In this document: positions 1 to 24,835 of the stretch, one piece after another
How the letters are laid out: every line of letters begins with the position of its first letter
Numbering within the stretch: position 1 is the stretch's first letter
Origin: Azolla caroliniana
Lineage: Eukaryota > Plantae > Polypodiophyta
Assembly (NCBI GenBank): GCA_043228905.1
Contig: JBHGNT010000449.1
Span: 1 to 24,835, forward strand
Direction: 5' to 3'
DNA: 24,835 bases
The notes under the pieces: generated by a model
Seen by the model: only the letters and a program-made list of their open reading frames with translations
Databases searched by the model: none
Told to the model about the DNA's origin: nothing
Position numbers and translations under genes: made by a program

Positions 1-403
1 TTTTTAGGGTGTTGGTTCTCTCCACGAAAACGTTATCGGTGGTTGTGGCCACGAGGGGGTTTAGAATCCATTGCGACCAACATACGGACGACGACACGCG
101 TTTTCATTGTGATTACAAGATCCGTCGTCGTTGTGGACGCTGCAACCACCGGAGGAATATGAAGGTGGCACCATTCAAGGACAACATTTCTAGGTGAAAC
201 ATGCGTGGGTTGGTTGGTTCACACGATGATGAAAATGGTAGATAGACATGGGAATTTCATGTGGAATCATGTTTGTAGTAGGAGTTACGATCAGCCACTA
301 CTATTGCGCACATCATGGTACGGCGAGACACGGCATTGTATGAGGGTGGCTTCAATACAACATTGTGATGGCATCGACGTTTGACGAGTTTCGCGTTGCT
401 CGT

Positions 404-471
404 GAGAGAGATAGCGATAGATGGATAGAGATAGATATAGGTAGGGTGGGAGTGGGTAGTGTGCGTGTGGG
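404..471 (+). repeat. Degenerate GA/GATA simple-sequence tract followed by a G-run tract in the spacer, in each unit
   Basis: gagagagatagcgatagatggatagagatagatataggtagggtgggagtgggtag...tggg. Confidence 0.6.
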
Positions 472-545
472 CACGTTACCTAATCATGTGTGCGTGGAGT
501 TTCATTTTGCTTGTGCAATGAGCGAGCGAGGGCACGCGACCTGAT

Positions 546-565
546 CGTGCGTGCGTGCGTGCGTG
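546..565 (+). repeat. (CGTG)5 microsatellite downstream of the stop codon, in each unit
   Basis: cgtgcgtgcgtgcgtgcgtg read directly. Confidence 0.85.
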
Positions 566-690
566 TTGTGCGCGAGCGTGGGAGAAATATGATTGAGAGG
601 GTTATGAGAACGTCAAGACACCACACAGAGCACACCATTTACATTTACGATGTTCAGAAAGTGTATAGTTGAAAAAGTTATGTACGTTCT

Positions 691-1728
691 TTAAAAGTGG
701 CGAATACAAGCGCGTGGGCGAAGATCACATTGTTGGAGAAGGCGAGAGGTTGCCACGCTTAGAAGTTGTTCCTCCTCACCGGCCTTGAAACGACGACGTT
801 GTTCCTCATCTTGTCGTCCGGTCATGCGATAACGGCGCTCGTCCTCCTCGCGCTCGCTACTGTCTCTCTCTCGCTCGGCATCCTCTTCCCATTGACGACG
901 TTCCCTTGACACTTGGTTATGGCGGTGACCATCATTGCGTGCCTCTTCTCCGCTAATGTATAAGGCCTCGCGGAGGCGGTTGCAACGCTCTTCTACGGGG
1001 ATTTGTTCCACGTTCCTGCAGCATCTTTCGGAGGGCCTTGCATATCGGCTGATTTCATCCCAAGAGGTGCGACGGCTTCGTCCACGTTCTTCCTTCTCAT
1101 TACGTTCTTGTAGGTGGCGGACCTGCCTATCGACGAAGTTTTGGCACTCTTGCCTCAACTCTCGGTCTCGTGGCTCATCGCGATCGCGGCCGCGACGATC
1201 CCGTTCCTCTTCGGACTCTCTCTTGTTGTCTCTGCGACGTCCTTCATCGAGGGATCCTTCACGACGTCGGTCGCGCCTCTCCTGCTCGACATCCTCCTCC
1301 CTGCGTCGATCGCGCCTCTCGTCACGTGACTCATCACGATCGCGACCGCGACGATCCCGTTCCTCTTCGGACTCTCTCTTGTTGTCTCCGTAGCGCCCCT
1401 CCTCGATGGACCCCTCGCGACGTCCCCCGCGCCTCTCCTCATCGAAATCCTCCTCCCTGCGTCGATCGCGCCTCTCCTCACGTGGCTCATCGCGATCGTG
1501 ACTGCGACGATCCCGGTCCTCATCCGACTCTCTCTTGTTGTCTCTGTAGCGCCTCTCATCGATGGATCCCTCACGACGTCCGCTGCGCCTCTCCTCGTCG
1601 ACATCCTCCTCCCTACGTCGATCGCGCCTCTCCTCTTCGCGATCCCGTCCTACAGATCTAGCATTGGCCGCGCCGCAGGCGGCTAGCATGATAACCGCCA
1701 TGAGGAATATGATAGTGAGCTTCGCCAT
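691..1728 (-). CDS. Arg/Glu/Asp-rich 2S-albumin-like (prolamin superfamily) storage protein precursor, copy 1 (N271)
   Basis: 345-aa ORF with ATG in a good plant context (gcaATGGC). Hydrophobic signal peptide MAKLTIIFLMAVIMLAACGAANA with an AxA cleavage site. Cys at 195, 236-237, 249, 334 and 341 in albumin-like spacing (QECQNF...PSERCC...ERC...QQC...RAC). TATA/RY/ABRE promoter upstream. The family call is from motif recognition, not a database search. Confidence 0.85.
   Translation of the reverse strand: MAKLTIIFLMAVIMLAACGAANARSVGRDREEERRDRRREEDVDEERRSGRREGSIDERRYRDNKRESDEDRDRRSHDRDEPREERRDRRREEDFDEERRGGRREGSIEEGRYGDNKRESEEERDRRGRDRDESRDERRDRRREEDVEQERRDRRREGSLDEGRRRDNKRESEEERDRRGRDRDEPRDRELRQECQNFVDRQVRHLQERNEKEERGRSRRTSWDEISRYARPSERCCRNVEQIPVEERCNRLREALYISGEEARNDGHRHNQVSRERRQWEEDAERERDSSEREEDERRYRMTGRQDEEQRRRFKAGEEEQLLSVATSRLLQQCDLRPRACIRHF
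1168..1635 (-). repeat. Intragenic tandem repeat: 3 x 156 bp (3 x 52 aa, aa 32-187), present in every complete gene copy
   Basis: DNKRES occurs at aa 63, 115 and 167 (52-aa period). At DNA level 'actctctcttgttgtctc' recurs at a 156-bp period. Confidence 0.95.
1660..1728 (-). other. Signal peptide coding segment (aa 1-23), present in all complete copies
   Basis: Basic n-region (MAK), hydrophobic h-region (LTIIFLMAVIMLAA), small residues at -3/-1 (A-N-A|R). Confidence 0.85.
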
Positions 1729-1794
1729 TGCTTGTGTTCGGAACTACCCCGGTTCTCTCTCCGCCTATTTGAGTGTGTCATGGTTGATCCACCC

Positions 1795-1801
1795 TTATAT
1801 A
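1795..1801 (-). promoter_or_regulatory. TATA box (TATATAA) of copy 1
   Basis: Lies 67-73 nt upstream of the ATG, with an initiator-like CTCA about 30 nt downstream (near 1770). Recurs at 3956, 6117, 8252, 10413, 12574, 14735, 16896, 19057, 21218 and 23379. Confidence 0.75.
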
Positions 1802-1809
1802 CACAAGGC

Positions 1810-1832
1810 CATGCATGTCTAGTACATGCATG
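1810..1832. promoter_or_regulatory. Double RY/Sph element (CATGCATG x2), the B3-domain factor (ABI3/FUS3/LEC2) site
   Basis: Exact CATGCATG at 1810-1817 and 1825-1832, immediately upstream of the TATA box; repeated in every unit. Confidence 0.8.
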
Positions 1833-1839
1833 TCCCTTC

Positions 1840-1845
1840 CCACGT
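1840..1845 (-). promoter_or_regulatory. ABRE/G-box-like element (ACGTGG)
   Basis: Plus strand CCACGT, 8 nt from the second RY element; repeated in every unit. Confidence 0.55.
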
Positions 1846-1921
1846 CCATTCCTATAGACGTTAAAGGCATGATCCATACTTGGGCCACGGAAGAGACCAT
1901 TCACTTTTATCCACCCCCCTT

Positions 1922-1929
1922 TACGTGTC
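1922..1929 (+). promoter_or_regulatory. ABRE (TACGTGTC)
   Basis: Matches the PyACGTG(G/T)C ABRE consensus, about 195 bp upstream of the ATG; repeated in every unit. Confidence 0.6.
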
Positions 1930-2253
1930 CAGGATCCTCCTGCTTCGACCTACCATATCACTAGCCCTATACTCACCTCCATCACACCAGGAGTGGGATT
2001 ATGCACTTGGGCATTTCAAATCTACTAACCTATGGACGCTTCGTCCATATTGCAACGTAGACAGTATGTAACCTCATGATAGCCACCTACACATGTGATG
2101 CCATTGAGGTTGTAGAGTGCGTATGGGCCTCGTAAAACGAGGATAAGGTGGTGAGAAAAGGTTTTTAGGGTGTTGGTTCTCTCCACGAAAACGTTATCGG
2201 TGGTTGTGGCCACGAGGGGGTTTAGAATCCATTGCGACCAACATACGGACGAC

Positions 2254-2262
2254 GACACGCGT
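2254..2262 (-). promoter_or_regulatory. CE3-like coupling element (ACGCGTGTC)
   Basis: Plus strand GACACGCGT, about 530 bp upstream of the copy 1 ATG; also at 93-101 and in each unit. Confidence 0.4.
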
Positions 2263-2851
2263 TTTCATTGTGATTACAAGATCCGTCGTCGTTGTGGACG
2301 CTGCAACCACCGGAGGAATATGAAGGTGGCACCATTCAAGGACAACATTTCTAGGTGAAACATGCGTGGGTTGGTTGGTTCACACGATGATGAAAATGGT
2401 AGATAGACATGGGAATTTCATGTGGAATCATGTTTGTAGTAGGAGTTACGATCAGCCACTACTATTGCGCACATCATGGTACGGCGAGACACGGCATTGT
2501 ATGAGGGTGGCTTCAATACAACATTGTGATGGCATCGACGTTTGACGAGTTTCGCGTTGCTCGTGAGAGAGATAGCGATAGATGGATAGAGATAGATATA
2601 GGTAGGGTGGGAGTGGGTAGTGTGCGTGTGGGCACGTTACCTAATCATGTGTGCGTGGAGTTTCATTTTGCTTGTGCAATGAGCGAGCGAGGGCACGCGA
2701 CCTGATCGTGCGTGCGTGCGTGCGTGTTGTGCGCGAGCGTGGGAGAAATATGATTGAGAGGGTTATGAGAACGTCAAGACACCACACAGAGCACACCATT
2801 TACATTTACGATGTTCAGAAAGTGTATAGTTGAAAAAGTTATGTACGTTCT

Positions 2852-3889
2852 TTAAAAGTGGCGAATACAAGCGCGTGGGCGAAGATCACATTGTTGGAGA
2901 AGGCGAGAGGTTGCCACGCTTAGAAGTTGTTCCTCCTCACCGGCCTTGAAACGACGACGTTGTTCCTCATCTTGTCGTCCGGTCATGCGATAACGGCGCT
3001 CGTCCTCCTCGCGCTCGCTACTGTCTCTCTCTCGCTCGGCATCCTCTTCCCATTGACGACGTTCCCTTGACACTTGGTTATGGCGGTGACCATCATTGCG
3101 TGCCTCTTCTCCGCTAATGTATAAGGCCTCGCGGAGGCGGTTGCAACGCTCTTCTACGGGGATTTGTTCCACGTTCCTGCAGCATCTTTCGGAGGGCCTT
3201 GCATATCGGCTGATTTCATCCCAAGAGGTGCGACGGCTTCGTCCACGTTCTTCCTTCTCATTACGTTCTTGTAGGTGGCGGACCTGCCTATCGACGAAGT
3301 TTTGGCACTCTTGCCTCAACTCTCGGTCTCGTGGCTCATCGCGATCGCGGCCGCGACGATCCCGTTCCTCTTCGGACTCTCTCTTGTTGTCTCTGCGACG
3401 TCCTTCATCGAGGGATCCTTCACGACGTCGGTCGCGCCTCTCCTGCTCGACATCCTCCTCCCTGCGTCGATCGCGCCTCTCGTCACGTGACTCATCACGA
3501 TCGCGACCGCGACGATCCCGTTCCTCTTCGGACTCTCTCTTGTTGTCTCCGTAGCGCCCCTCCTCGATGGACCCCTCGCGACGTCCCCCGCGCCTCTCCT
3601 CATCGAAATCCTCCTCCCTGCGTCGATCGCGCCTCTCCTCACGTGGCTCATCGCGATCGTGACTGCGACGATCCCGGTCCTCATCCGACTCTCTCTTGTT
3701 GTCTCTGTAGCGCCTCTCATCGATGGATCCCTCACGACGTCCGCTGCGCCTCTCCTCGTCGACATCCTCCTCCCTACGTCGATCGCGCCTCTCCTCTTCG
3801 CGATCCCGTCCTACAGATCTAGCATTGGCCGCGCCGCAGGCGGCTAGCATGATAACCGCCATGAGGAATATGATAGTGAGCTTCGCCAT
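2852..3889 (-). CDS. 2S-albumin-like Arg-rich storage protein precursor, copy 2 (N271)
   Basis: Translation identical to copy 1. Confidence 0.85.
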   Translation of the reverse strand: MAKLTIIFLMAVIMLAACGAANARSVGRDREEERRDRRREEDVDEERRSGRREGSIDERRYRDNKRESDEDRDRRSHDRDEPREERRDRRREEDFDEERRGGRREGSIEEGRYGDNKRESEEERDRRGRDRDESRDERRDRRREEDVEQERRDRRREGSLDEGRRRDNKRESEEERDRRGRDRDEPRDRELRQECQNFVDRQVRHLQERNEKEERGRSRRTSWDEISRYARPSERCCRNVEQIPVEERCNRLREALYISGEEARNDGHRHNQVSRERRQWEEDAERERDSSEREEDERRYRMTGRQDEEQRRRFKAGEEEQLLSVATSRLLQQCDLRPRACIRHF

Positions 3890-5012
3890 TGCTTGTGTTC
3901 GGAACTACCCCGGTTCTCTCTCCGCCTATTTGAGTGTGTCATGGTTGATCCACCCTTATATACACAAGGCCATGCATGTCTAGTACATGCATGTCCCTTC
4001 CCACGTCCATTCCTATAGACGTTAATGGCATGATCCATACTTGGGCCACGGAAGAGACCATTCACTTTTATCCACCCCCCTTTACGTGTCCAGGATCCTC
4101 CTGCTTCGACCTACCATATCACTAGCCCTATACTCACCTCCATCACACCAGGAGTGGGATTATGCACTTGGGCATTTCAAATCTACTAACCTATGGACGC
4201 TTCGTCCATATTGCAACGTAGACAGTATGTAACCTCATGATAGCCACCTACACATGTGATGCCATTGAGGTTGTAGAGTGCGTATGGGCCTCGTAAAACG
4301 AGGATAAGGTGGTGAGAAAAGGTTTTTAGGGTGTTGGTTCTCTCCACGAAAACGTTATCGGTGGTTGTGGCCACGAGGGGGTTTAGAATCCATTGCGACC
4401 AACATACGGACGACGACACGCGTTTTCATTGTGATTACAAGATCCGTCGTCGTTGTGGACGCTGCAACCACCGGAGGAATATGAAGGTGGCACCATTCAA
4501 GGACAACATTTCTAGGTGAAACATGCGTGGGTTGGTTGGTTCACACGATGATGAAAATGGTAGATAGACATGGGAATTTCATGTGGAATCATGTTTGTAG
4601 TAGGAGTTACGATCAGCCACTACTATTGCGCACATCATGGTACGGCGAGACACGGCATTGTATGAGGGTGGCTTCAATACAACATTGTGATGGCATCGAC
4701 GTTTGACGAGTTTCGCGTTGCTCGTGAGAGAGATAGCGATAGATGGATAGAGATAGATATAGGTAGGGTGGGAGTGGGTAGTGTGCGTGTGGGCACGTTA
4801 CCTAATCATGTGTGCGTGGAGTTTCATTTTGCTTGTGCAATGAGCGAGCGAGGGCACGCGACCTGATCGTGCGTGCGTGCGTGCGTGTTGTGCGCGAGCG
4901 TGGGAGAAATATGATTGAGAGGGTTATGAGAACGTCAAGACACCACACAGAGCACACCATTTACATTTACGATGTTCAGAAAGTGTATAGTTGAAAAAGT
5001 TATGTACGTTCT

Positions 5013-6050
5013 TTAAAAGTGGCGAATACAAGCGCGTGGGCGAAGATCACATTGTTGGAGAAGGCGAGAGGTTGCCACGCTTAGAAGTTGTTCCTCCTCA
5101 CCGGCCTTGAAACGACGACGTTGTTCCTCATCTTGTCGTCCGGTCATGCGATAACGGCGCTCGTCCTCCTCGCGCTCGCTACTGTCTCTCTCTCGCTCGG
5201 CATCCTCTTCCCATTGACGACGTTCCCTTGACACTTGGTTATGGCGGTGACCATCATTGCGTGCCTCTTCTCCGCTAATGTATAAGGCCTCGCGGAGGCG
5301 GTTGCAACGCTCTTCTACGGGGATTTGTTCCACGTTCCTGCAGCATCTTTCGGAGGGCCTTGCATATCGGCTGATTTCATCCCAAGAGGTGCGACGGCTT
5401 CGTCCACGTTCTTCCTTCTCATTACGTTCTTGTAGGTGGCGGACCTGCCTATCGACGAAGTTTTGGCACTCTTGCCTCAACTCTCGGTCTCGTGGCTCAT
5501 CGCGATCGCGGCCGCGACGATCCCGTTCCTCTTCGGACTCTCTCTTGTTGTCTCTGCGACGTCCTTCATCGAGGGATCCTTCACGACGTCGGTCGCGCCT
5601 CTCCTGCTCGACATCCTCCTCCCTGCGTCGATCGCGCCTCTCGTCACGTGACTCATCACGATCGCGACCGCGACGATCCCGTTCCTCTTCGGACTCTCTC
5701 TTGTTGTCTCCGTAGCGCCCCTCCTCGATGGACCCCTCGCGACGTCCCCCGCGCCTCTCCTCATCGAAATCCTCCTCCCTGCGTCGATCGCGCCTCTCCT
5801 CACGTGGCTCATCGCGATCGTGACTGCGACGATCCCGGTCCTCATCCGACTCTCTCTTGTTGTCTCTGTAGCGCCTCTCATCGATGGATCCCTCACGACG
5901 TCCGCTGCGCCTCTCCTCGTCGACATCCTCCTCCCTACGTCGATCGCGCCTCTCCTCTTCGCGATCCCGTCCTACAGATCTAGCATTGGCCGCGCCGCAG
6001 GCGGCTAGCATGATAACCGCCATGAGGAATATGATAGTGAGCTTCGCCAT
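5013..6050 (-). CDS. 2S-albumin-like Arg-rich storage protein precursor, copy 3 (N271)
   Basis: Translation identical to copy 1. Confidence 0.85.
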   Translation of the reverse strand: MAKLTIIFLMAVIMLAACGAANARSVGRDREEERRDRRREEDVDEERRSGRREGSIDERRYRDNKRESDEDRDRRSHDRDEPREERRDRRREEDFDEERRGGRREGSIEEGRYGDNKRESEEERDRRGRDRDESRDERRDRRREEDVEQERRDRRREGSLDEGRRRDNKRESEEERDRRGRDRDEPRDRELRQECQNFVDRQVRHLQERNEKEERGRSRRTSWDEISRYARPSERCCRNVEQIPVEERCNRLREALYISGEEARNDGHRHNQVSRERRQWEEDAERERDSSEREEDERRYRMTGRQDEEQRRRFKAGEEEQLLSVATSRLLQQCDLRPRACIRHF

Positions 6051-7207
6051 TGCTTGTGTTCGGAACTACCCCGGTTCTCTCTCCGCCTATTTGAGTGTGT
6101 CATGGTTGATCCACCCTTATATACACAAGGCCATGCATGTCTAGTACATGCATGTCCCTTCCCACGTCCATTCCTATAGACGTTAATGGCATGATCCATA
6201 CTTGGGCCACGGAAGAGACCATTCACTTTTATCCACCCCCCTTTACGTGTCCAGGATCCTCCTGCTTCGACCTACCATATCACTAGCCCTATACTCACCT
6301 CCATCACACCAGGAGTGGGATTATGCACTTGGGCATTTCAAATCTACTAACCTATGGACGCTTCGTCCATATTGCAACGTAGACAGTATGTAACCTCATG
6401 ATAGCCACCTACACATGTGATGCCATTGAGGTTGTAGAGTGCGTATGGGCCTCGTAAAACGAGGATAAGGTGGTGAGAAAAGGTTTTTAGGGTGTTGGTT
6501 CTCTCCACGAAAACGTTATCGGTGGTTGTGGCCACGAGGGGGTTTAGAATCCATTGCGACCAACATACGGACGACGACACGCGTTTTCATTGTGATTACA
6601 AGATCCGTCGTCGTTGTGGACGCTGCAACCACCGGAGGAATATGAAGGTGGCACCATTCAAGGACAACATTTCTAGGTGAAACATGCGTGGGTTGGTTGG
6701 TTCACACGATGATGAAAATGGTAGATAGACATGGGAATTTCATGTGGAATCATGTTTGTAGTAGGAGTTACGATCAGCCACTACTATTGCGCACATCATG
6801 GTACGGCGAGACACGGCATTGTATGAGGGTGGCTTCAATACAACATTGTGATGGCATCGACGTTTGACGAGTTTCGCGTTGCTCGTGAGAGAGATAGCGA
6901 TAGATGGATAGAGATAGATATAGGTAGGGTGGGAGTGGGTAGTGTGCGTGTGGGCACGTTACCTAATCATGTGTGCGTGGAGTTTCATTTTGCTTGTGCA
7001 ATGAGCGAGCGAGGGCACGCGACCTGATCGTGCGTGCGTGCGTGCGTGTTGTGCGCGAGCGTGGGAGAAATATGATTGAGAGGGTTATGAGAACGTCAAG
7101 ACACCACACAGAGCACACCATTTACATTTACGATGTTCAGAAAGTGTATAGTTGAAAAAGTTATGTACGTTCTTTAAAAGTGGCGAATACAAGCGCGTGG
7201 GCGAAGA

Positions 7208-8185
7208 TCACATTGTTGGAGAAGGCGAGAGGTTGCCACGCTTAAAACGACGACGTTGTTCCTCATCTTGTCGTCCGGTCATGCGATAACGGCGCTCGTC
7301 CTCCTCGCGCTCGCTACTGTCTCTCTCTCGCTCGGCATCCTCTTCCCATTGACGACGTTCCCTTGACACTTGGTTATGGCGGTGACCATCATTGCGTGCC
7401 TCTTCTCCGCTAATGTATAAGGCCTCGCGGAGGCGGTTGCAACGCTCTTCTACGGGGATTTGTTCCACGTTCCTGCAGCATCTTTCGGAGGGCCTTGCAT
7501 ATCGGCTGATTTCATCCCAAGAGGTGCGACGGCTTCGTCCACGTTCTTCCTTCTCATTACGTTCTTGTAGGTGGCGGACCTGCCTATCGACGAAGTTTTG
7601 GCACTCTTGCCTCAACTCTCGGTCTCGTGGCTCATCGCGATCGCGGCCGCGACGATCCCGTTCCTCTTCGGACTCTCTCTTGTTGTCTCTGCGACGTCCT
7701 TCATCGAGGGATCCTTCACGACGTCGGTCGCGCCTCTCCTGCTCGACATCCTCCTCCCTGCGTCGATCGCGCCTCTCGTCACGTGACTCATCACGATCGC
7801 GACCGCGACGATCCCGTTCCTCTTCGGACTCTCTCTTGTTGTCTCCGTAGCGCCCCTCCTCGATGGACCCCTCGCGACGTCCCCCGCGCCTCTCCTCATC
7901 GAAATCCTCCTCCCTGCGTCGATCGCGCCTCTCCTCACGTGGCTCATCGCGATCGTGACTGCGACGATCCCGGTCCTCATCCGACTCTCTCTTGTTGTCT
8001 CTGTAGCGCCTCTCATCGATGGATCCCTCACGACGTCCGCTGCGCCTCTCCTCGTCGACATCCTCCTCCCTACGTCGATCGCGCCTCTCCTCTTCGCGAT
8101 CCCGTCCTACAGATCTAGCATTGGCCGCGCCGCAGGCGGCTAGCATGATAACCGCCATGAGGAATATGATAGTGAGCTTCGCCAT
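7208..8185 (-). pseudogene. Copy 4, frameshifted near the C-terminus (325 aa, lacks the last two Cys); probable defective copy
   Basis: 26-bp deletion at junction 7244/7245 (removes the equivalent of 762-787 in copy 1). The ORF ends ...RRRFKRGNLSPSPTM* instead of ...RRRFKAGEEEQ...QQCDLRPRACIRHF*. The promoter is intact, so it may still be expressed. Confidence 0.75.
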
Positions 8186-9308: not shown

Positions 9309-10346
9309 TTAAAAGTGGCGAATACAAGCGCGTGGGCGAAGATCACATTGTTGGAGAAGGCGAGAGGTTGCCACGCTTAGAAGTTGTTCCTCCTCACCGG
9401 CCTTGAAACGACGACGTTGTTCCTCATCTTGTCGTCCGGTCATGCGATAACGGCGCTCGTCCTCCTCGCGCTCGCTACTGTCTCTCTCTCGCTCGGCATC
9501 CTCTTCCCATTGACGACGTTCCCTTGACACTTGGTTATGGCGGTGACCATCATTGCGTGCCTCTTCTCCGCTAATGTATAAGGCCTCGCGGAGGCGGTTG
9601 CAACGCTCTTCTACGGGGATTTGTTCCACGTTCCTGCAGCATCTTTCGGAGGGCCTTGCATATCGGCTGATTTCATCCCAAGAGGTGCGACGGCTTCGTC
9701 CACGTTCTTCCTTCTCATTACGTTCTTGTAGGTGGCGGACCTGCCTATCGACGAAGTTTTGGCACTCTTGCCTCAACTCTCGGTCTCGTGGCTCATCGCG
9801 ATCGCGGCCGCGACGATCCCGTTCCTCTTCGGACTCTCTCTTGTTGTCTCTGCGACGTCCTTCATCGAGGGATCCTTCACGACGTCGGTCGCGCCTCTCC
9901 TGCTCGACATCCTCCTCCCTGCGTCGATCGCGCCTCTCGTCACGTGACTCATCACGATCGCGACCGCGACGATCCCGTTCCTCTTCGGACTCTCTCTTGT
10001 TGTCTCCGTAGCGCCCCTCCTCGATGGACCCCTCGCGACGTCCCCCGCGCCTCTCCTCATCGAAATCCTCCTCCCTGCGTCGATCGCGCCTCTCCTCACG
10101 TGGCTCATCGCGATCGTGACTGCGACGATCCCGGTCCTCATCCGACTCTCTCTTGTTGTCTCTGTAGCGCCTCTCATCGATGGATCCCTCACGACGTCCG
10201 CTGCGCCTCTCCTCGTCGACATCCTCCTCCCTACGTCGATCGCGCCTCTCCTCTTCGCGATCCCGTCCTACAGATCTAGCATTGGCCGCGCCGCAGGCGG
10301 CTAGCATGATAACCGCCATGAGGAATATGATAGTGAGCTTCGCCAT
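9309..10346 (-). CDS. 2S-albumin-like Arg-rich storage protein precursor, copy 5 (N271)
   Basis: Translation identical to copy 1. Confidence 0.85.
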   Translation of the reverse strand: MAKLTIIFLMAVIMLAACGAANARSVGRDREEERRDRRREEDVDEERRSGRREGSIDERRYRDNKRESDEDRDRRSHDRDEPREERRDRRREEDFDEERRGGRREGSIEEGRYGDNKRESEEERDRRGRDRDESRDERRDRRREEDVEQERRDRRREGSLDEGRRRDNKRESEEERDRRGRDRDEPRDRELRQECQNFVDRQVRHLQERNEKEERGRSRRTSWDEISRYARPSERCCRNVEQIPVEERCNRLREALYISGEEARNDGHRHNQVSRERRQWEEDAERERDSSEREEDERRYRMTGRQDEEQRRRFKAGEEEQLLSVATSRLLQQCDLRPRACIRHF

Positions 10347-11469: not shown

Positions 11470-12507
11470 TTAAAAGTGGCGAATACAAGCGCGTGGGCGA
11501 AGATCACATTGTTGGAGAAGGCGAGAGGTTGCCACGCTTAGAAGTTGTTCCTCCTCACCGGCCTTGAAACGACGACGTTGTTCCTCATCTTGTCGTCCGG
11601 TCATGCGATAACGGCGCTCGTCCTCCTCGCGCTCGCTACTGTCTCTCTCTCGCTCGGCATCCTCTTCCCATTGACGACGTTCCCTTGACACTTGGTTATG
11701 GCGGTGACCATCATTGCGTGCCTCTTCTCCGCTAATGTATAAGGCCTCGCGGAGGCGGTTGCAACGCTCTTCTACGGGGATTTGTTCCACGTTCCTGCAG
11801 CATCTTTCGGAGGGCCTTGCATATCGGCTGATTTCATCCCAAGAGGTGCGACGGCTTCGTCCACGTTCTTCCTTCTCATTACGTTCTTGTAGGTGGCGGA
11901 CCTGCCTATCGACGAAGTTTTGGCACTCTTGCCTCAACTCTCGGTCTCGTGGCTCATCGCGATCGCGGCCGCGACGATCCCGTTCCTCTTCGGACTCTCT
12001 CTTGTTGTCTCTGCGACGTCCTTCATCGAGGGATCCTTCACGACGTCGGTCGCGCCTCTCCTGCTCGACATCCTCCTCCCTGCGTCGATCGCGCCTCTCG
12101 TCACGTGACTCATCACGATCGCGACCGCGACGATCCCGTTCCTCTTCGGACTCTCTCTTGTTGTCTCCGTAGCGCCCCTCCTCGATGGACCCCTCGCGAC
12201 GTCCCCCGCGCCTCTCCTCATCGAAATCCTCCTCCCTGCGTCGATCGCGCCTCTCCTCACGTGGCTCATCGCGATCGTGACTGCGACGATCCCGGTCCTC
12301 ATCCGACTCTCTCTTGTTGTCTCTGTAGCGCCTCTCATCGATGGATCCCTCACGACGTCCGCTGCGCCTCTCCTCGTCGACATCCTCCTCCCTACGTCGA
12401 TCGCGCCTCTCCTCTTCGCGATCCCGTCCTACAGATCTAGCATTGGCCGCGCCGCAGGCGGCTAGCATGATAACCGCCATGAGGAATATGATAGTGAGCT
12501 TCGCCAT
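11470..12507 (-). CDS. 2S-albumin-like Arg-rich storage protein precursor, copy 6 (N271)
   Basis: Translation identical to copy 1. Confidence 0.85.
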   Translation of the reverse strand: MAKLTIIFLMAVIMLAACGAANARSVGRDREEERRDRRREEDVDEERRSGRREGSIDERRYRDNKRESDEDRDRRSHDRDEPREERRDRRREEDFDEERRGGRREGSIEEGRYGDNKRESEEERDRRGRDRDESRDERRDRRREEDVEQERRDRRREGSLDEGRRRDNKRESEEERDRRGRDRDEPRDRELRQECQNFVDRQVRHLQERNEKEERGRSRRTSWDEISRYARPSERCCRNVEQIPVEERCNRLREALYISGEEARNDGHRHNQVSRERRQWEEDAERERDSSEREEDERRYRMTGRQDEEQRRRFKAGEEEQLLSVATSRLLQQCDLRPRACIRHF

Positions 12508-13630: not shown

Positions 13631-14668
13631 TTAAAAGTGGCGAATACAAGCGCGTGGGCGAAGATCACATTGTTGGAGAAGGCGAGAGGTTGCCACGCTT
13701 AGAAGTTGTTCCTCCTCACCGGCCTTGAAACGACGACGTTGTTCCTCATCTTGTCGTCCGGTCATGCGATAACGGCGCTCGTCCTCCTCGCGCTCGCTAC
13801 TGTCTCTCTCTCGCTCGGCATCCTCTTCCCATTGACGACGTTCCCTTGACACTTGGCTATGGCGGTGACCATCATTGCGTGCCTCTTCTCCGCTAATGTA
13901 TAAGGCCTCGCGGAGGCGGTTGCAACGCTCTTCTACGGGGATTTGTTCCACGTTCCTGCAGCATCTTTCGGAGGGCCTTGCATATCGGCTGATTTCATCC
14001 CAAGAGGTGCGACGGCTTCGTCCACGTTCTTCCTTCTCATTACGTTCTTGTAGGTGGCGGACCTGCCTATCGACGAAGTTTTGGCACTCTTGCCTCAACT
14101 CTCGGTCTCGTGGCTCATCGCGATCGTGGCCGCGACGATCCCGTTCCTCTTCGGACTCTCTCTTGTTGTCTCTGCGACGTCCTTCATCGAGGGATCCTTC
14201 ACGACGTCGGTCGCGCCTCTCCTGCTCGACATCCTCCTCCCTGCGTCGATCGCGCCTCTCGTCACGTGACTCATCACGATCGCGACCGCGACGATCCCGT
14301 TCCTCTTCGGACTCTCTCTTGTTGTCTCCGTAGCGCCCCTCCTCGATGGACCCCTCGCGACGTCCCCCGCGCCTCTCCTCATCGAAATCCTCCTCCCTGC
14401 GTCGATCGCGCCTCTCCTCACGTGGCTCATCGCGATCGTGACTGCGACGATCCCGGTCCTCATCCGACTCTCTCTTGTTGTCTCTGTAGCGCCTCTCATC
14501 GATGGATCCCTCACGACGTCCGCTGCGCCTCTCCTCGTCGACATCCTCCTCCCTACGTCGATCGCGCCTCTCCTCTTCGCGATCCCGTCCTACAGATCTA
14601 GCATTGGCCGCGCCGCAGGCGGCTAGCATGATAACCGCCATGAGGAATATGATAGTGAGCTTCGCCAT
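13631..14668 (-). CDS. 2S-albumin-like Arg-rich storage protein precursor, copy 7 (R181H, N271S)
   Basis: 345 aa. Differs from copy 1 by C>T at 14127 (R181H) and T>C at 13857 (N271S), + strand bases. Confidence 0.85.
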   Translation of the reverse strand: MAKLTIIFLMAVIMLAACGAANARSVGRDREEERRDRRREEDVDEERRSGRREGSIDERRYRDNKRESDEDRDRRSHDRDEPREERRDRRREEDFDEERRGGRREGSIEEGRYGDNKRESEEERDRRGRDRDESRDERRDRRREEDVEQERRDRRREGSLDEGRRRDNKRESEEERDRRGHDRDEPRDRELRQECQNFVDRQVRHLQERNEKEERGRSRRTSWDEISRYARPSERCCRNVEQIPVEERCNRLREALYISGEEARNDGHRHSQVSRERRQWEEDAERERDSSEREEDERRYRMTGRQDEEQRRRFKAGEEEQLLSVATSRLLQQCDLRPRACIRHF

Positions 14669-15791: not shown

Positions 15792-16829
15792 TTAAAAGTG
15801 GCGAATACAAGCGCGTGGGCGAAGATCACATTGTTGGAGAAGGCGAGAGGTTGCCACGCTTAGAAGTTGTTCCTCCTCACCGGCCTTGAAACGACGACGT
15901 TGTTCCTCATCTTGTCGTCCGGTCATGCGATAACGGCGCTCGTCCTCCTCGCGCTCGCTACTGTCTCTCTCTCGCTCGGCATCCTCTTCCCATTGACGAC
16001 GTTCCCTTGACACTTGGCTATGGCGGTGACCATCATTGCGTGCCTCTTCTCCGCTAATGTATAAGGCCTCGCGGAGGCGGTTGCAACGCTCTTCTACGGG
16101 GATTTGTTCCACGTTCCTGCAGCATCTTTCGGAGGGCCTTGCATATCGGCTGATTTCATCCCAAGAGGTGCGACGGCTTCGTCCACGTTCTTCCTTCTCA
16201 TTACGTTCTTGTAGGTGGCGGACCTGCCTATCGACGAAGTTTTGGCACTCTTGCCTCAACTCTCGGTCTCGTGGCTCATCGCGATCGCGGCCGCGACGAT
16301 CCCGTTCCTCTTCGGACTCTCTCTTGTTGTCTCTGCGACGTCCTTCATCGAGGGATCCTTCACGACGTCGGTCGCGCCTCTCCTGCTCGACATCCTCCTC
16401 CCTGCGTCGATCGCGCCTCTCGTCACGTGACTCATCACGATCGCGACCGCGACGATCCCGTTCCTCTTCGGACTCTCTCTTGTTGTCTCCGTAGCGCCCC
16501 TCCTCGATGGACCCCTCGCGACGTCCCCCGCGCCTCTCCTCATCGAAATCCTCCTCCCTGCGTCGATCGCGCCTCTCCTCACGTGGCTCATCGCGATCGT
16601 GACTGCGACGATCCCGGTCCTCATCCGACTCTCTCTTGTTGTCTCTGTAGCGCCTCTCATCGATGGATCCCTCACGACGTCCGCTGCGCCTCTCCTCGTC
16701 GACATCCTCCTCCCTACGTCGATCGCGCCTCTCCTCTTCGCGATCCCGTCCTACAGATCTAGCATTGGCCGCGCCGCAGGCGGCTAGCATGATAACCGCC
16801 ATGAGGAATATGATAGTGAGCTTCGCCAT
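15792..16829 (-). CDS. 2S-albumin-like Arg-rich storage protein precursor, copy 8 (N271S)
   Basis: 345 aa; T>C at 16018. Confidence 0.85.
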   Translation of the reverse strand: MAKLTIIFLMAVIMLAACGAANARSVGRDREEERRDRRREEDVDEERRSGRREGSIDERRYRDNKRESDEDRDRRSHDRDEPREERRDRRREEDFDEERRGGRREGSIEEGRYGDNKRESEEERDRRGRDRDESRDERRDRRREEDVEQERRDRRREGSLDEGRRRDNKRESEEERDRRGRDRDEPRDRELRQECQNFVDRQVRHLQERNEKEERGRSRRTSWDEISRYARPSERCCRNVEQIPVEERCNRLREALYISGEEARNDGHRHSQVSRERRQWEEDAERERDSSEREEDERRYRMTGRQDEEQRRRFKAGEEEQLLSVATSRLLQQCDLRPRACIRHF

Positions 16830-17952: not shown

Positions 17953-18990
17953 TTAAAAGTGGCGAATACAAGCGCGTGGGCGAAGATCACATTGTTGGAG
18001 AAGGCGAGAGGTTGCCACGCTTAGAAGTTGTTCCTCCTCACCGGCCTTGAAACGACGACGTTGTTCCTCATCTTGTCGTCCGGTCATGCGATAACGGCGC
18101 TCGTCCTCCTCGCGCTCGCTACTGTCTCTCTCTCGCTCGGCATCCTCTTCCCATTGACGACGTTCCCTTGACACTTGGTTATGGCGGTGACCATCATTGC
18201 GTGCCTCTTCTCCGCTAATGTATAAGGCCTCGCGGAGGCGGTTGCAACGCTCTTCTACGGGGATTTGTTCCACGTTCCTGCAGCATCTTTCGGAGGGCCT
18301 TGCATATCGGCTGATTTCATCCCAAGAGGTGCGACGGCTTCGTCCACGTTCTTCCTTCTCATTACGTTCTTGTAGGTGGCGGACCTGCCTATCGACGAAG
18401 TTTTGGCACTCTTGCCTCAACTCTCGGTCTCGTGGCTCATCGCGATCGCGGCCGCGACGATCCCGTTCCTCTTCGGACTCTCTCTTGTTGTCTCTGCGAC
18501 GTCCTTCATCGAGGGATCCTTCACGACGTCGGTCGCGCCTCTCCTGCTCGACATCCTCCTCCCTGCGTCGATCGCGCCTCTCGTCACGTGACTCATCACG
18601 ATCGCGACCGCGACGATCCCGTTCCTCTTCGGACTCTCTCTTGTTGTCTCCGTAGCGCCCCTCCTCGATGGACCCCTCGCGACGTCCCCCGCGCCTCTCC
18701 TCATCGAAATCCTCCTCCCTGCGTCGATCGCGCCTCTCCTCACGTGGCTCATCGCGATCGTGACTGCGACGATCCCGGTCCTCATCCGACTCTCTCTTGT
18801 TGTCTCTGTAGCGCCTCTCATCGATGGATCCCTCACGACGTCCGCTGCGCCTCTCCTCGTCGACATCCTCCTCCCTACGTCGATCGCGCCTCTCCTCTTC
18901 GCGATCCCGTCCTACAGATCTAGCATTGGCCGCGCCGCAGGCGGCTAGCATGATAACCGCCATGAGGAATATGATAGTGAGCTTCGCCAT
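17953..18990 (-). CDS. 2S-albumin-like Arg-rich storage protein precursor, copy 9 (N271)
   Basis: Translation identical to copy 1; T at 18179. Confidence 0.85.
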   Translation of the reverse strand: MAKLTIIFLMAVIMLAACGAANARSVGRDREEERRDRRREEDVDEERRSGRREGSIDERRYRDNKRESDEDRDRRSHDRDEPREERRDRRREEDFDEERRGGRREGSIEEGRYGDNKRESEEERDRRGRDRDESRDERRDRRREEDVEQERRDRRREGSLDEGRRRDNKRESEEERDRRGRDRDEPRDRELRQECQNFVDRQVRHLQERNEKEERGRSRRTSWDEISRYARPSERCCRNVEQIPVEERCNRLREALYISGEEARNDGHRHNQVSRERRQWEEDAERERDSSEREEDERRYRMTGRQDEEQRRRFKAGEEEQLLSVATSRLLQQCDLRPRACIRHF

Positions 18991-20113: not shown

Positions 20114-21151
20114 TTAAAAGTGGCGAATACAAGCGCGTGGGCGAAGATCACATTGTTGGAGAAGGCGAGAGGTTGCCACGCTTAGAAGTTGTTCCTCCTC
20201 ACCGGCCTTGAAACGACGACGTTGTTCCTCATCTTGTCGTCCGGTCATGCGATAACGGCGCTCGTCCTCCTCGCGCTCGCTACTGTCTCTCTCTCGCTCG
20301 GCATCCTCTTCCCATTGACGACGTTCCCTTGACACTTGGCTATGGCGGTGACCATCATTGCGTGCCTCTTCTCCGCTAATGTATAAGGCCTCGCGGAGGC
20401 GGTTGCAACGCTCTTCTACGGGGATTTGTTCCACGTTCCTGCAGCATCTTTCGGAGGGCCTTGCATATCGGCTGATTTCATCCCAAGAGGTGCGACGGCT
20501 TCGTCCACGTTCTTCCTTCTCATTACGTTCTTGTAGGTGGCGGACCTGCCTATCGACGAAGTTTTGGCACTCTTGCCTCAACTCTCGGTCTCGTGGCTCA
20601 TCGCGATCGCGGCCGCGACGATCCCGTTCCTCTTCGGACTCTCTCTTGTTGTCTCTGCGACGTCCTTCATCGAGGGATCCTTCACGACGTCGGTCGCGCC
20701 TCTCCTGCTCGACATCCTCCTCCCTGCGTCGATCGCGCCTCTCGTCACGTGACTCATCACGATCGCGACCGCGACGATCCCGTTCCTCTTCGGACTCTCT
20801 CTTGTTGTCTCCGTAGCGCCCCTCCTCGATGGACCCCTCGCGACGTCCCCCGCGCCTCTCCTCATCGAAATCCTCCTCCCTGCGTCGATCGCGCCTCTCC
20901 TCACGTGGCTCATCGCGATCGTGACTGCGACGATCCCGGTCCTCATCCGACTCTCTCTTGTTGTCTCTGTAGCGCCTCTCATCGATGGATCCCTCACGAC
21001 GTCCGCTGCGCCTCTCCTCGTCGACATCCTCCTCCCTACGTCGATCGCGCCTCTCCTCTTCGCGATCCCGTCCTACAGATCTAGCATTGGCCGCGCCGCA
21101 GGCGGCTAGCATGATAACCGCCATGAGGAATATGATAGTGAGCTTCGCCAT
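20114..21151 (-). CDS. 2S-albumin-like Arg-rich storage protein precursor, copy 10 (N271S)
   Basis: 345 aa; T>C at 20340. Confidence 0.85.
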   Translation of the reverse strand: MAKLTIIFLMAVIMLAACGAANARSVGRDREEERRDRRREEDVDEERRSGRREGSIDERRYRDNKRESDEDRDRRSHDRDEPREERRDRRREEDFDEERRGGRREGSIEEGRYGDNKRESEEERDRRGRDRDESRDERRDRRREEDVEQERRDRRREGSLDEGRRRDNKRESEEERDRRGRDRDEPRDRELRQECQNFVDRQVRHLQERNEKEERGRSRRTSWDEISRYARPSERCCRNVEQIPVEERCNRLREALYISGEEARNDGHRHSQVSRERRQWEEDAERERDSSEREEDERRYRMTGRQDEEQRRRFKAGEEEQLLSVATSRLLQQCDLRPRACIRHF

Positions 21152-22274
21152 TGCTTGTGTTCGGAACTACCCCGGTTCTCTCTCCGCCTATTTGAGTGTG
21201 TCATGGTTGATCCACCCTTATATACACAAGGCCATGCATGTCTAGTACATGCATGTCCCTTCCCACGTCCATTCCTATAGACGTTAATGGCATGATCCAT
21301 ACTTGGGCCACGGAAGAGACCATTCACTTTTATCCACCCCCCTTTACGTGTCCAGGATCCTCCTGCTTCGACCTACCATATCACTAGCCCTATACTCACC
21401 TCCATCACACCAGGAGTGGGATTATGCACTTGGGCATTTCAAATCTACTAACCTATGGACGCTTCGTCCATATTGCAACGTAGACAGTATGTAACCTCAT
21501 GATAGCCACCTACACATGTGATGCCATTGAGGTTGTAGAGTGCGTATGGGCCTCGTAAAACGAGGATAAGGTGGTGAGAAAAGGTTTTTAGGGTGTTGGT
21601 TCTCTCCACGAAAACGTTATCGGTGGTTGTGGCCACGAGGGGGTTTAGAATCCATTGCGACCAACATACGGACGACGACACGCGTTTTCATTGTGATTAC
21701 AAGATCCGTCGTCGTTGTGGACGCTGCAACCACCGGAGGAATATGAAGGTGGCACCATTCAAGGACAACATTTCTAGGTGAAACATGCGTGGGTTGGTTG
21801 GTTCACACGATGATGAAAATGGTAGATAGACATGGGAATTTCATGTGGAATCATGTTTGTAGTAGGAGTTACGATCAGCCACTACTATTGCGCACATCAT
21901 GGTACGGCGAGACACGGCATTGTATGAGGGTGGCTTCAATACAACATTGTGATGGCATCGACGTTTGACGAGTTTCGCGTTGCTCGTGAGAGAGATAGCG
22001 ATAGATGGATAGAGATAGATATAGGTAGGGTGGGAGTGGGTAGTGTGCGTGTGGGCACGTTACCTAATCATGTGTGCGTGGAGTTTCATTTTGCTTGTGC
22101 AATGAGCGAGCGAGGGCACGCGACCTGATCGTGCGTGCGTGCGTGCGTGTTGTGCGCGAGCGTGGGAGAAATATGATTGAGAGGGTTATGAGAACGTCAA
22201 GACACCACACAGAGCACACCATTTACATTTACGATGTTCAGAAAGTGTATAGTTGAAAAAGTTATGTACGTTCT

Positions 22275-23312
22275 TTAAAAGTGGCGAATACAAGCGCGTG
22301 GGCGAAGATCACATTGTTGGAGAAGGCGAGAGGTTGCCACGCTTAGAAGTTGTTCCTCCTCACCGGCCTTGAAACGACGACGTTGTTCCTCATCTTGTCG
22401 TCCGGTCATGCGATAACGGCGCTCGTCCTCCTCGCGCTCGCTACTGTCTCTCTCTCGCTCGGCATCCTCTTCCCATTGACGACGTTCCCTTGACACTTGG
22501 CTATGGCGGTGACCATCATTGCGTGCCTCTTCTCCGCTAATGTATAAGGCCTCGCGGAGGCGGTTGCAACGCTCTTCTACGGGGATTTGTTCCACGTTCC
22601 TGCAGCATCTTTCGGAGGGCCTTGCATATCGGCTGATTTCATCCCAAGAGGTGCGACGGCTTCGTCCACGTTCTTCCTTCTCATTACGTTCTTGTAGGTG
22701 GCGGACCTGCCTATCGACGAAGTTTTGGCACTCTTGCCTCAACTCTCGGTCTCGTGGCTCATCGCGATCGCGGCCGCGACGATCCCGTTCCTCTTCGGAC
22801 TCTCTCTTGTTGTCTCTGCGACGTCCTTCATCGAGGGATCCTTCACGACGTCGGTCGCGCCTCTCCTGCTCGACATCCTCCTCCCTGCGTCGATCGCGCC
22901 TCTCGTCACGTGACTCATCACGATCGCGACCGCGACGATCCCGTTCCTCTTCGGACTCTCTCTTGTTGTCTCCGTAGCGCCCCTCCTCGATGGACCCCTC
23001 GCGACGTCCCCCGCGCCTCTCCTCATCGAAATCCTCCTCCCTGCGTCGATCGCGCCTCTCCTCACGTGGCTCATCGCGATCGTGACTGCGACGATCCCGG
23101 TCCTCATCCGACTCTCTCTTGTTGTCTCTGTAGCGCCTCTCATCGATGGATCCCTCACGACGTCCGCTGCGCCTCTCCTCGTCGACATCCTCCTCCCTAC
23201 GTCGATCGCGCCTCTCCTCTTCGCGATCCCGTCCTACAGATCTAGCATTGGCCGCGCCGCAGGCGGCTAGCATGATAACCGCCATGAGGAATATGATAGT
23301 GAGCTTCGCCAT
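22275..23312 (-). CDS. 2S-albumin-like Arg-rich storage protein precursor, copy 11 (N271S)
   Basis: 345 aa; T>C at 22501. Confidence 0.85.
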   Translation of the reverse strand: MAKLTIIFLMAVIMLAACGAANARSVGRDREEERRDRRREEDVDEERRSGRREGSIDERRYRDNKRESDEDRDRRSHDRDEPREERRDRRREEDFDEERRGGRREGSIEEGRYGDNKRESEEERDRRGRDRDESRDERRDRRREEDVEQERRDRRREGSLDEGRRRDNKRESEEERDRRGRDRDEPRDRELRQECQNFVDRQVRHLQERNEKEERGRSRRTSWDEISRYARPSERCCRNVEQIPVEERCNRLREALYISGEEARNDGHRHSQVSRERRQWEEDAERERDSSEREEDERRYRMTGRQDEEQRRRFKAGEEEQLLSVATSRLLQQCDLRPRACIRHF

Positions 23313-24435
23313 TGCTTGTGTTCGGAACTACCCCGGTTCTCTCTCCGCCTATTTGAGTGTGTCATGGTTGATCCACCCTTATATACACAAGGCCATGCAT
23401 GTCTAGTACATGCATGTCCCTTCCCACGTCCATTCCTATAGACGTTAATGGCATGATCCATACTTGGGCCACGGAAGAGACCATTCACTTTTATCCACCC
23501 CCCTTTACGTGTCCAGGATCCTCCTGCTTCGACCTACCATATCACTAGCCCTATACTCACCTCCATCACACCAGGAGTGGGATTATGCACTTGGGCATTT
23601 CAAATCTACTAACCTATGGACGCTTCGTCCATATTGCAACGTAGACAGTATGTAACCTCATGATAGCCACCTACACATGTGATGCCATTGAGGTTGTAGA
23701 GTGCGTATGGGCCTCGTAAAACGAGGATAAGGTGGTGAGAAAAGGTTTTTAGGGTGTTGGTTCTCTCCACGAAAACGTTATCGGTGGTTGTGGCCACGAG
23801 GGGGTTTAGAATCCATTGCGACCAACATACGGACGACGACACGCGTTTTCATTGTGATTACAAGATCCGTCGTCGTTGTGGACGCTGCAACCACCGGAGG
23901 AATATGAAGGTGGCACCATTCAAGGACAACATTTCTAGGTGAAACATGCGTGGGTTGGTTGGTTCACACGATGATGAAAATGGTAGATAGACATGGGAAT
24001 TTCATGTGGAATCATGTTTGTAGTAGGAGTTACGATCAGCCACTACTATTGCGCACATCATGGTACGGCGAGACACGGCATTGTATGAGGGTGGCTTCAA
24101 TACAACATTGTGATGGCATCGACGTTTGACGAGTTTCGCGTTGCTCGTGAGAGAGATAGCGATAGATGGATAGAGATAGATATAGGTAGGGTGGGAGTGG
24201 GTAGTGTGCGTGTGGGCACGTTACCTAATCATGTGTGCGTGGAGTTTCATTTTGCTTGTGCAATGAGCGAGCGAGGGCACGCGACCTGATCGTGCGTGCG
24301 TGCGTGCGTGTTGTGCGCGAGCGTGGGAGAAATATGATTGAGAGGGTTATGAGAACGTCAAGACACCACACAGAGCACACCATTTACATTTACGATGTTC
24401 AGAAAGTGTATAGTTGAAAAAGTTATGTACGTTCT

Positions 24436-24835
24436 TTAAAAGTGGCGAATACAAGCGCGTGGGCGAAGATCACATTGTTGGAGAAGGCGAGAGGTTGCCA
24501 CGCTTAGAAGTTGTTCCTCCTCACCGGCCTTGAAACGACGACGTTGTTCCTCATCTTGTCGTCCGGTCATGCGATAACGGCGCTCGTCCTCCTCGCGCTC
24601 GCTACTGTCTCTCTCTCGCTCGGCATCCTCTTCCCATTGACGACGTTCCCTTGACACTTGGCTATGGCGGTGACCATCATTGCGTGCCTCTTCTCCGCTA
24701 ATGTATAAGGCCTCGCGGAGGCGGTTGCAACGCTCTTCTACGGGGATTTGTTCCACGTTCCTGCAGCATCTTTCGGAGGGCCTTGCATATCGGCTGATTT
24801 CATCCCAAGAGGTGCGACGGCTTCGTCCACGTTCT
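24436..24835 (-). CDS. Copy 12, 5'-partial (cut by window edge; about aa 214-345 visible, N271S)
   Basis: Same sequence as the 3' part of the other copies; T>C at 24662. The track's 106-aa start is an internal GTG (Val240), not the true start. Confidence 0.82.
   Translation of the reverse strand, partial: ERGRSRRTSWDEISRYARPSERCCRNVEQIPVEERCNRLREALYISGEEARNDGHRHSQVSRERRQWEEDAERERDSSEREEDERRYRMTGRQDEEQRRRFKAGEEEQLLSVATSRLLQQCDLRPRACIRHF

Follow-up and report, generated by a model that had tools for sequence, protein, structure and literature searches.

The question raised by the 24,835-bp stretch of Azolla caroliniana DNA analysed here (GenBank contig JBHGNT010000449.1, positions 1 to 24,835; the whole stretch is termed the window) is why one protein-coding gene should be repeated together with its spacer and nothing else, what this gene encodes and how its copies remain alike. 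We consider it probable, at a level well short of certainty, that the window belongs to a genuine one-gene array, likely of hundreds of copies, that is ancestral, has been kept uniform and mass-produces what is likely a nitrogen-storage protein at spore or seed maturation. Storage function, expression and dosage selection are among those parts of this reading that we infer.

The window is a pure tandem array with a period of 2,161 bp and without interruption: a 24-nt anchor was found 12 times at 2,161-bp spacing, with a single exception of 2,135 bp, and each unit carries one uninterrupted 345-codon open reading frame (ORF) on the minus strand (Table 1). Alignment of the units revealed exactly four variable sites, three of them in the coding sequence (CDS), the number already given in an earlier reading made from the letters alone (the sequence-only reading); unit pairs are on average 0.87 substitutions apart and nucleotide diversity (pi) is 0.0004, i.e., 0.04%. 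The uninterrupted, homogeneous array of a one-gene unit described in that reading is borne out in the window as well as in independent contigs that run from gene to gene, and its count of 12 complete genes has to be lowered to 11 whole genes, of which ten remain intact: in unit 4 a frameshift leaves 325 amino acids (aa) and removes the last two cysteines, and unit 12 is partial. The C allele at unit position 917 clusters in the window's right half (of 792 arrangements, 4 are as extreme; two-sided rank p = 0.01), and a runs test on the order of this allele was not significant (p = 0.076). Neither a transfer RNA nor an Rfam family match was found in the spacer or the unit. ORFs of 145-176 aa on the opposite strand or out of frame were rejected as shadows of the repeat region.

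Independent sequencing data were drawn from 24 listed public runs, eight of which (X1, X4, X6, X11, X12, X15, X21 and X22) were examined in detail by alignment of contigs to the window. The unit or part of it is present in 20 of the 24 runs (at least half a unit in 17), stemming from 15 studies, one possibly being the window's own source. The joint from unit end to unit start lies on one contig in four of four runs (X1, X6, X11 and X12), the short side of this gene-to-gene joint measuring 249-255 letters in X1, X6 and X12 and merely 22 in X11. A 1,934-bp contig of X1 starts in the 5' CDS of one gene, crosses the entire spacer and ends in the following gene, showing no difference to the window. 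In the alignments of X15, X21, X22 and X4 the wrap-around joint falls inside the ORF and so says nothing on tandem order by itself; in X21 and X22, moreover, the spacer is uncovered at 80% likeness, such that these two runs speak to the gene and not to tandem order. The 917 C allele accounts for 3,888 of 8,963 depth (43%) in X11, as compared to five of 12 units in the window, is near-fixed or fixed in X15, X12, X6, X22 and X4 and was not seen in X1. Vector sequence, which the sequence-only reading had named as the mark of a transgene concatemer, was looked for: a search of 72,556 plasmids gave no match to the unit, which contains neither vector nor marker sequence. Because independent short-read contigs bridge gene to gene, we regard the array as genuine and an assembly error or a transgene as very unlikely.

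The gene also occurs at depths in the thousands in runs labelled organisms B, C and D, tandem order having been seen for B alone; together with the coverage of 56-557 of four circular metagenome units (see below), the depth data support a high copy number. Samples labelled organism A disagree in array-wide indels and substitutions, X1 being window-like and X6 equalling the organism B haplotype, while X15 (window 3000-5160), also labelled organism A, exhibits several indels and substitutions at high depth. Labels may be wrong or plants hybrid; since the X15 differences are absent from the window and from X1, array variants appear to turn over within one species label. In X6 (window 2162-4322; longest record 6,111 bp), ORF contigs are 450-1,057 deep and the spacer contig 91.5. 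This could point to RNA sequencing with a share of DNA or of read-through, and the contrast is not counted as expression evidence because contig depth cannot rank gene parts. No RNA run is listed among the holders of the unit, which is evidence neither way on expression; X23 and X24, two runs guessed to be RNA, lie outside the eight examined.

Several further sequence classes accompany the main one. A diverged second gene class reaches a depth of about 1,390 in X12, where its spacer is about 279 bp shorter (window 2162-5160), and a depth of 29 in X4 versus 11 for the window class. The JGI fragments P0002 and P0004, located on contigs of 1.5-5.1 kb, are 72-76% identical at the C-terminus. The second class (X12, X4 and X15; P0002, P0004 and P0006-P0010) probably constitutes a paralogous family and is perhaps arrayed too. 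In X11, X12, X15 and X22, numerous low-depth copies are diverged and carry partial deletions, e.g., skips of 218-219, 160 and 53 bp; these copies likely represent orphans or edges of the array, and some of the loose ends may mark its junctions. The unit 4 deletion (window 7244-7245) is not among the differences listed for the eight runs examined and is either a rare copy-level variant or private to the assembly.

Copy number was estimated by dividing the k-mer depth of main-class contigs by that of diverged same-family pieces in the same run. Main-class depths of about 8,700 (X11), 3,200 (X12), 5,300 (X15) and 3,300 (X22) and diverged-piece medians of 44, 7, 12 and 10, respectively, correspond to ratios of 198, 445, 455 and 318 (range 117-868) in four of the eight runs examined, ratios that presuppose single-copy diverged pieces and rest on rows hand-picked among those listed (314 and 206 pieces lying outside). 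A copy number of about 200-450, i.e., an array of 0.4-1 Mb, is likely on this basis, "hundreds" being an estimate from contig depth.

With regard to the age of the array, a metagenome scan yielded four loci among 299 pattern matches, each consisting of one circularised unit with terminal overlap (L001-L004, Table 1). The contigs, whose coverage is given in their names, bear node numbers of 2,280-12,698; metagenome assembly nodes are presumably numbered by length and, if so, little single-copy host DNA was assembled while the unit was deep. Between the window and L002-L004, the DNA of the cysteine domain is 94-95% identical without gaps; identity falls to 89-93% in the repeat region (111-159 gap columns) and to 73-79% in the spacer (180-262 gap columns); spacers of L002 and L003/L004 are 71% identical and those of L003 and L004 95%. 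The notion that spacers are as conserved as the CDS thus holds within the window and fails between lineages, where spacer identities of 71-79% face domain identities of 94-95%. Synonymous divergence (dS) between lineages amounts to 0.16-0.23 at a ratio of nonsynonymous to synonymous divergence (dN/dS) of 0.11-0.14 (window versus L002-L004: dS 0.16-0.21, dN/dS 0.12-0.14, Fisher p 2e-7 to 1e-5); judged by these codon comparisons, the protein is under purifying selection. The internal Arg/Glu repeat has been rebuilt in each lineage by in-frame duplications and deletions (495, 564 and 582 bp), while the cysteine domain is without indel.

Divergence between lineages is several hundred times the diversity within the window, the only array for which within-array diversity was measured. 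Three features of a concerted array of the rDNA (ribosomal DNA) type are present: uninterrupted head-to-tail units that are nearly identical, a divergence between lineages far exceeding that within the array and a spacer evolving faster than the gene. Because spacers of diverged lineages are only 71-79% identical at a pi of 0.0004 in the window, concerted evolution in an old array is indicated rather than one recent burst. Of the two options left by the sequence-only reading, the concertedly evolving dosage array fits, and very recent amplification alone does not, three diverged lineages possessing the same unit. The simplest reading, and a likely one, is that a single ancestral array has been homogenised in each lineage on its own; parallel amplification of a single ortholog is possible.

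A silent satellite should drift everywhere. Here, however, the majority sequence of each array is an intact ORF with a dN/dS of 0.11-0.14 and a conserved promoter, and unit length (2,129-2,161 bp) as well as one gene per unit are retained in four of four lineages. This speaks against the alternative that a real storage gene resides in a satellite-like or re-amplified by-product, an array that expanded or turned over in each lineage without dosage selection and in which most copies are silent. Such an array would have a precedent in maize zeins, where few copies supply most of the mRNA (PMC3121756), and it would accord with the fast turnover evident from X1 and X15, organism A samples that differ in array-wide fixed indels, with one broken copy in 11, with a TpG excess of 1.36-1.42 in the spacer and with the second diverged class in X12. 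CpG, on the other hand, is not depleted (spacer 0.93-1.04, CDS 1.38-1.48), a weak argument. All in all, we judge the by-product explanation unlikely, albeit the most serious of the competing ones.

The predicted protein starts with a hydrophobic segment: hydropathy of the first 20 residues is 2-3 and none of them is acidic, by which measure it likely has an N-terminal signal peptide as 2S albumins do. Residues 25-189 consist of three repeats of 52 aa, in which 61 residues are basic and 66 acidic; residues 190-345 contain six cysteines and an Arg/Glu-rich insert. The chain after the signal region has a mass of 40 kDa and contains 28.7% Arg, 20.6% Glu and 11.2% Asp. Nitrogen makes up 22% of its mass (1.98 N atoms per residue), compared to about 16% in ordinary proteins. 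The sequence-only reading is supported in so far as the protein is nitrogen-rich and prolamin-superfamily-like and has a maturation-type promoter.

The C-terminal domain alone matches PF00234 marginally (22.7 bits versus a cut-off of 21.7, E = 1.2e-4), and five of seven aligned members match the same family (best E = 4.4e-5). A profile search of PDB sequences returned nine matches at E <= 10, eight of which belong to the prolamin superfamily by molecule name (amylase/protease inhibitors and 2S albumins); the single-sequence PDB search returned none, and a domain-only homologue search retained 0 of 62 candidates. Neighbours in the Atlas are clusters of cereal globulin ("Globulin 1") and of hordein/gliadin storage proteins at 0.75-0.77, at the level of a lead only. 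P0003, an unnamed ENA protein of 246 aa, is 46% identical and exhibits the same six-cysteine pattern with Glu/Arg/His-rich inserts, so that the reduced motif would predate the array-bearing lineages. With a poor structural model (see below), Foldseek gave no match at E <= 0.001, and the best Z score in the VIA fold search was 4.5, tied low rows including the 2S albumin 5dom (Z 3.6, root-mean-square deviation 4.2, 67 aligned, 24% identity) and DIR1 (Z 3.6). A Pfam "Conotoxin" row (E = 0.25, far under the cut-off) in the signal region was dismissed as chance. On these grounds it is likely a derived member of the prolamin superfamily that works as a reserve protein in the manner of 2S albumins or alpha-globulins.

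Upstream of the gene, two CATGCATG octamers (RY elements) occur within 300 nt, a number reached in none of 5,000 shuffles, and RY and G-box-like motifs lie within 250 nt of the start, as is typical of ABI3/LAFL-type targets. The last 223 nt of the promoter are 68-87% invariant over four lineages versus 18-60% in other parts of the spacer. The combination of RY and G-box is the signature of ABI3 targets, storage genes included, and extends to ferns and mosses, with the same motifs being common in non-targets too (PMC3458547); maturing fern sporangia express LEC2- and ABI3-type genes (PMC5379062). A seed- or spore-maturation-type promoter is supported by these motifs.

A maturation-type promoter would also suit a product that is chiefly defensive (antifungal or an amylase/protease inhibitor) or a structural, desiccation-protective spore or seed protein, encoded by an array that is equally real and concerted, as genes for late embryogenesis abundant proteins and oleosins are under RY/G-box promoters as well (PMC3458547). 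The best related PDB matches are amylase/trypsin inhibitors and the chitin-binding 2S albumin Mo-CBP4, antifungal 2S albumins exist (PMC4366206), and dN/dS near 0.12 is tighter than we would expect for a pure reserve protein. About three quarters of the mature chain, however, are charge-balanced Arg/Glu/Asp low complexity with a lineage-variable number of repeats (345, 368 and 374 aa), for which nitrogen packing is expected rather than a binding surface. Near-identical copies suit dosage, whereas defence genes usually diversify, and the nearest Atlas clusters, as far as leads go, are storage proteins. We therefore hold a primarily defensive or protective role to be improbable.

Several points count against the reading we prefer. 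The whole protein scores 19.9 bits with PF00234, below the Pfam cut-off; best PDB E-values are 0.03-0.06, the top match being unrelated and the best related one having an E of 0.042; homologue searches brought up no named homologue and only the unnamed P0001 and P0003 and fragments of 44-46 aa; and the AlphaFold model is all-helical and poor, with a per-residue confidence (pLDDT) of 62 and a predicted template-modelling score (pTM) of 0.48. The canonical eight-cysteine motif C..C../..CC..CxC..C..C is absent, six cysteines being present and CxC being E-R-C in the window and L002-L004. L001 and the window may come from the same plant stock, and homogeneity inside the L002-L004 arrays is deduced solely from their collapse into one contig. 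Contig depth is no copy number, as a warning attached to the depth data states. A depth of only one or two copies had been named by the sequence-only reading as the sign of an artefact; the ratios of 198-455 in four of eight runs differ from this on the single-copy assumption, X6 gives about 20-35 (spacer 91.5 versus pieces at 2.6-4.3) and X4 about 2-3 (11 versus pieces at 3.5-6.1), the X4 calibrator pieces probably being other multi-copy classes. X1 and X21 have no usable calibrator, the three pieces of X21 lying at about 6,000-6,300. Finally, only two of 26 maize 19-kDa alpha-zein copies are highly expressed and most contribute little mRNA (PMC3121756), so that many gene copies need not equal many active copies.

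That the repetition is an artefact, be it because the assembly was over-expanded, because rolling-circle replication made a concatemer from a small circle or because a transgene was concatenated, can practically be set aside: short-read circular contigs cannot separate a chromosomal array from 2.2-kb circles, and the array is known without long reads or junctions, both ends lying outside the window, but the unit recurs in 15 studies with diverged forms in other lineages, the share of the commonest variant agrees between independent data and the window, along which it is ordered, and plasmid, vector and marker sequences are absent as stated above.

Table 1. Features of the window, variable sites of its units and related metagenome units.
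Feature	Position or length	Strand	Remarks
Head-to-tail array of 11 whole 2,161-bp units and 1,090 bp of a twelfth	1..24835	.	unit 4: 2,135 bp; both ends beyond window
Unit starts	1, 2162, 4323, 6484, 8619, 10780, 12941, 15102, 17263, 19424, 21585, 23746		
Unit 1 gene	691..1728	-	uninterrupted 345-aa ORF; Arg/Glu/Asp-rich prolamin-superfamily-like protein
Unit 1, C-terminal six-cysteine domain with Arg/Glu-rich insert	691..1170	-	C195, C236-C237, C249, C334, C341; PF00234 22.7 bits
Unit 1, three 156-bp (52-aa) internal repeats	1169..1635	-	87% alike; Arg/Glu/Asp-rich, charge balanced
Unit 1, hydrophobic N-terminus, likely signal peptide	1657..1728	-	about residues 1-24; from hydropathy and charge, without signal-peptide predictor
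Spacer, 1,123 bp	1729..2851	.	gene 1 promoter and gene 2 3' region
TATA box	1795..1801	-	73 nt before ATG (-73); kept in all 4 related units
Two CATGCATG (RY) elements	1810..1832	-	-89 and -104; proximal kept in 4/4 related units, distal changed in L002-L004
ACGTG (G-box- or abscisic-acid-responsive-element (ABRE)-like)	1841..1845	-	-117; kept in all related units
Second ACGT core	about 1923-1927		near -198; kept in all related units
Unit 2 gene	2852..3889	-	intact
Unit 3 gene	5013..6050	-	intact
Unit 4 gene	7208..8185	-	frameshift via 26-bp deletion; 325 aa, without last two cysteines
Unit 5 gene	9309..10346	-	intact
Unit 6 gene	11470..12507	-	intact
Unit 7 gene	13631..14668	-	intact; two substitutions (Arg to His, Asn to Ser)
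Unit 8 gene	15792..16829	-	intact; Ser variant
Unit 9 gene	17953..18990	-	intact
Unit 10 gene	20114..21151	-	intact; Ser variant
Unit 11 gene	22275..23312	-	intact; Ser variant
Unit 12 gene	24436..24835	-	only last 133 codons (window end cuts rest); Ser variant
Variable site 1, 26-bp deletion	unit position 762-787		unit 4
Variable site 2, T/C, Asn/Ser	unit position 917		C in units 7, 8, 10, 11, 12
Variable site 3, C/T, Arg/His	unit position 1187		unit 7
Variable site 4, A/T, promoter	unit position 1865		unit 1
L001	2,161 bp		overlap 11 nt; coverage 249; intact ORF 345 aa; identical to window unit
L002	2,158 bp		overlap 55 nt; coverage 56; intact ORF 368 aa
L003	2,129 bp		overlap 77 nt; coverage 557; intact ORF 374 aa
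L004	2,158 bp		overlap 55 nt; coverage 287; intact ORF 374 aa

The missing cysteine pair presumably amounts to one whole disulfide, C1-C5. Plain membership in the 2S albumins is not supported. 2S albumins (PF00234) are defined by their eight-cysteine motif and their genes are usually several, intronless and arranged in tandem (PMC4366206). The array gene resembles them in its signal-peptide-like start, the lack of an apparent intron, tandem arrangement, a polar Arg/Glu bias, the C...CC...C...C...C spacing and the RY/G-box promoter, and differs in having six of eight cysteines (Glu takes the place of the first Cys of CxC, and an N-terminal Cys is lacking) and a 40-kDa chain that begins with a repeat region of 165 aa and includes an Arg/Glu-rich insert. 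The precursor of 345-374 aa likewise departs from the canonical size of about 155-165 aa, with chains of about 4 and 8 kDa. Whole-unit homogeneity and likely hundreds of copies set it further apart from gymnosperms, for which a recent genome survey reports 0-7 2S albumin genes, with none outside seed plants (PMC10006428). A fern 2.2S spore protein, matteuccin, is cited in PMC4973428.

In cereal alpha-globulin and high-molecular-weight glutenin, too, deletions and long insertions of low complexity have modified an eight-cysteine scaffold, and their storage role would be shared as well (PMC4973428), while the repeats here are Arg/Glu/Asp and not Pro/Gln and no sequence-level homologue was found. 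Maize alpha-zein clusters are likewise multi-copy, tandemly amplified storage genes with some copies broken, but their loci comprise from a few copies up to about nine, spread over 80-500 kb, with intervening transposons and many damaged copies (PMC3121756), in contrast to one uninterrupted 2.16-kb unit with ten of 11 genes intact and a pi of 0.0004. The three HMA4 copies of Arabidopsis halleri exemplify plant tandem protein-coding copies with gene conversion and dosage selection, conversion there taking place among coding sequences (PMC3749932), and the vicilin-like tandem array of Cycas is storage-related and consists of cupin genes (PMC9023351). In within-genome homogeneity, a conserved gene with a fast spacer, locally spreading variants and likely hundreds of copies, the array is akin to those of ribosomal DNA (rDNA), 5S and histone genes, the cargo here being likely a tissue-specific storage-protein gene transcribed by RNA polymerase II instead of a housekeeping RNA or histone.

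Under the preferred reading of a uniform storage-gene array, ABI3/LEC2-type B3 factors and bZIPs would turn copies on via the RY and ACGT boxes. The precursor would enter the endoplasmic reticulum by its N-terminus and fold a reduced, three-disulfide helical core, and the product would be stored in protein vacuoles or bodies until its breakdown at germination releases the nitrogen. Unequal crossing-over and gene conversion would maintain uniformity; selection on output would hold the number of copies up, and variants, broken copies like unit 4 among them, would be spread or eliminated by recombination. It is conceivable, though on balance doubtful, that a fern genus has kept, since before speciation, a megabase-scale array of several hundred active Arg-rich spore-storage genes and, beside it, a second paralogous array, the rationale being that very few nuclei must load a large spore with nitrogen quickly. 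If true, the array would have its counterpart in animal eggs, in their amplified histone and oocyte 5S gene sets, and this would account for surveys without 2S-albumin-type genes outside seed plants, the locus having been collapsed or repeat-masked.

Storage-protein families come as clusters of small to moderate size whose spacers have diverged and in which many copies are dead. As far as searched, the combination of an rDNA-like array with a storage gene at such scale and age is new, each part being known: no literature report of an rDNA-like storage-gene array was found in a search that left supplements and most subscription journals outside, and two water-fern genome papers do not mention storage proteins or albumin in their accessible text, supplements aside (PMC12400808, PMC6786969). 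A tissue-specific protein gene kept as an rDNA-style array across species would be a rare case in which plants raise dosage through massive tandem copy number. In short-read assemblies, loci of this kind are hidden as a single collapsed contig. Accessions differ in copy number and array variants, which can be compared with protein content, and a fern host would give genomic access to the spore proteins ancestral to seed storage proteins.

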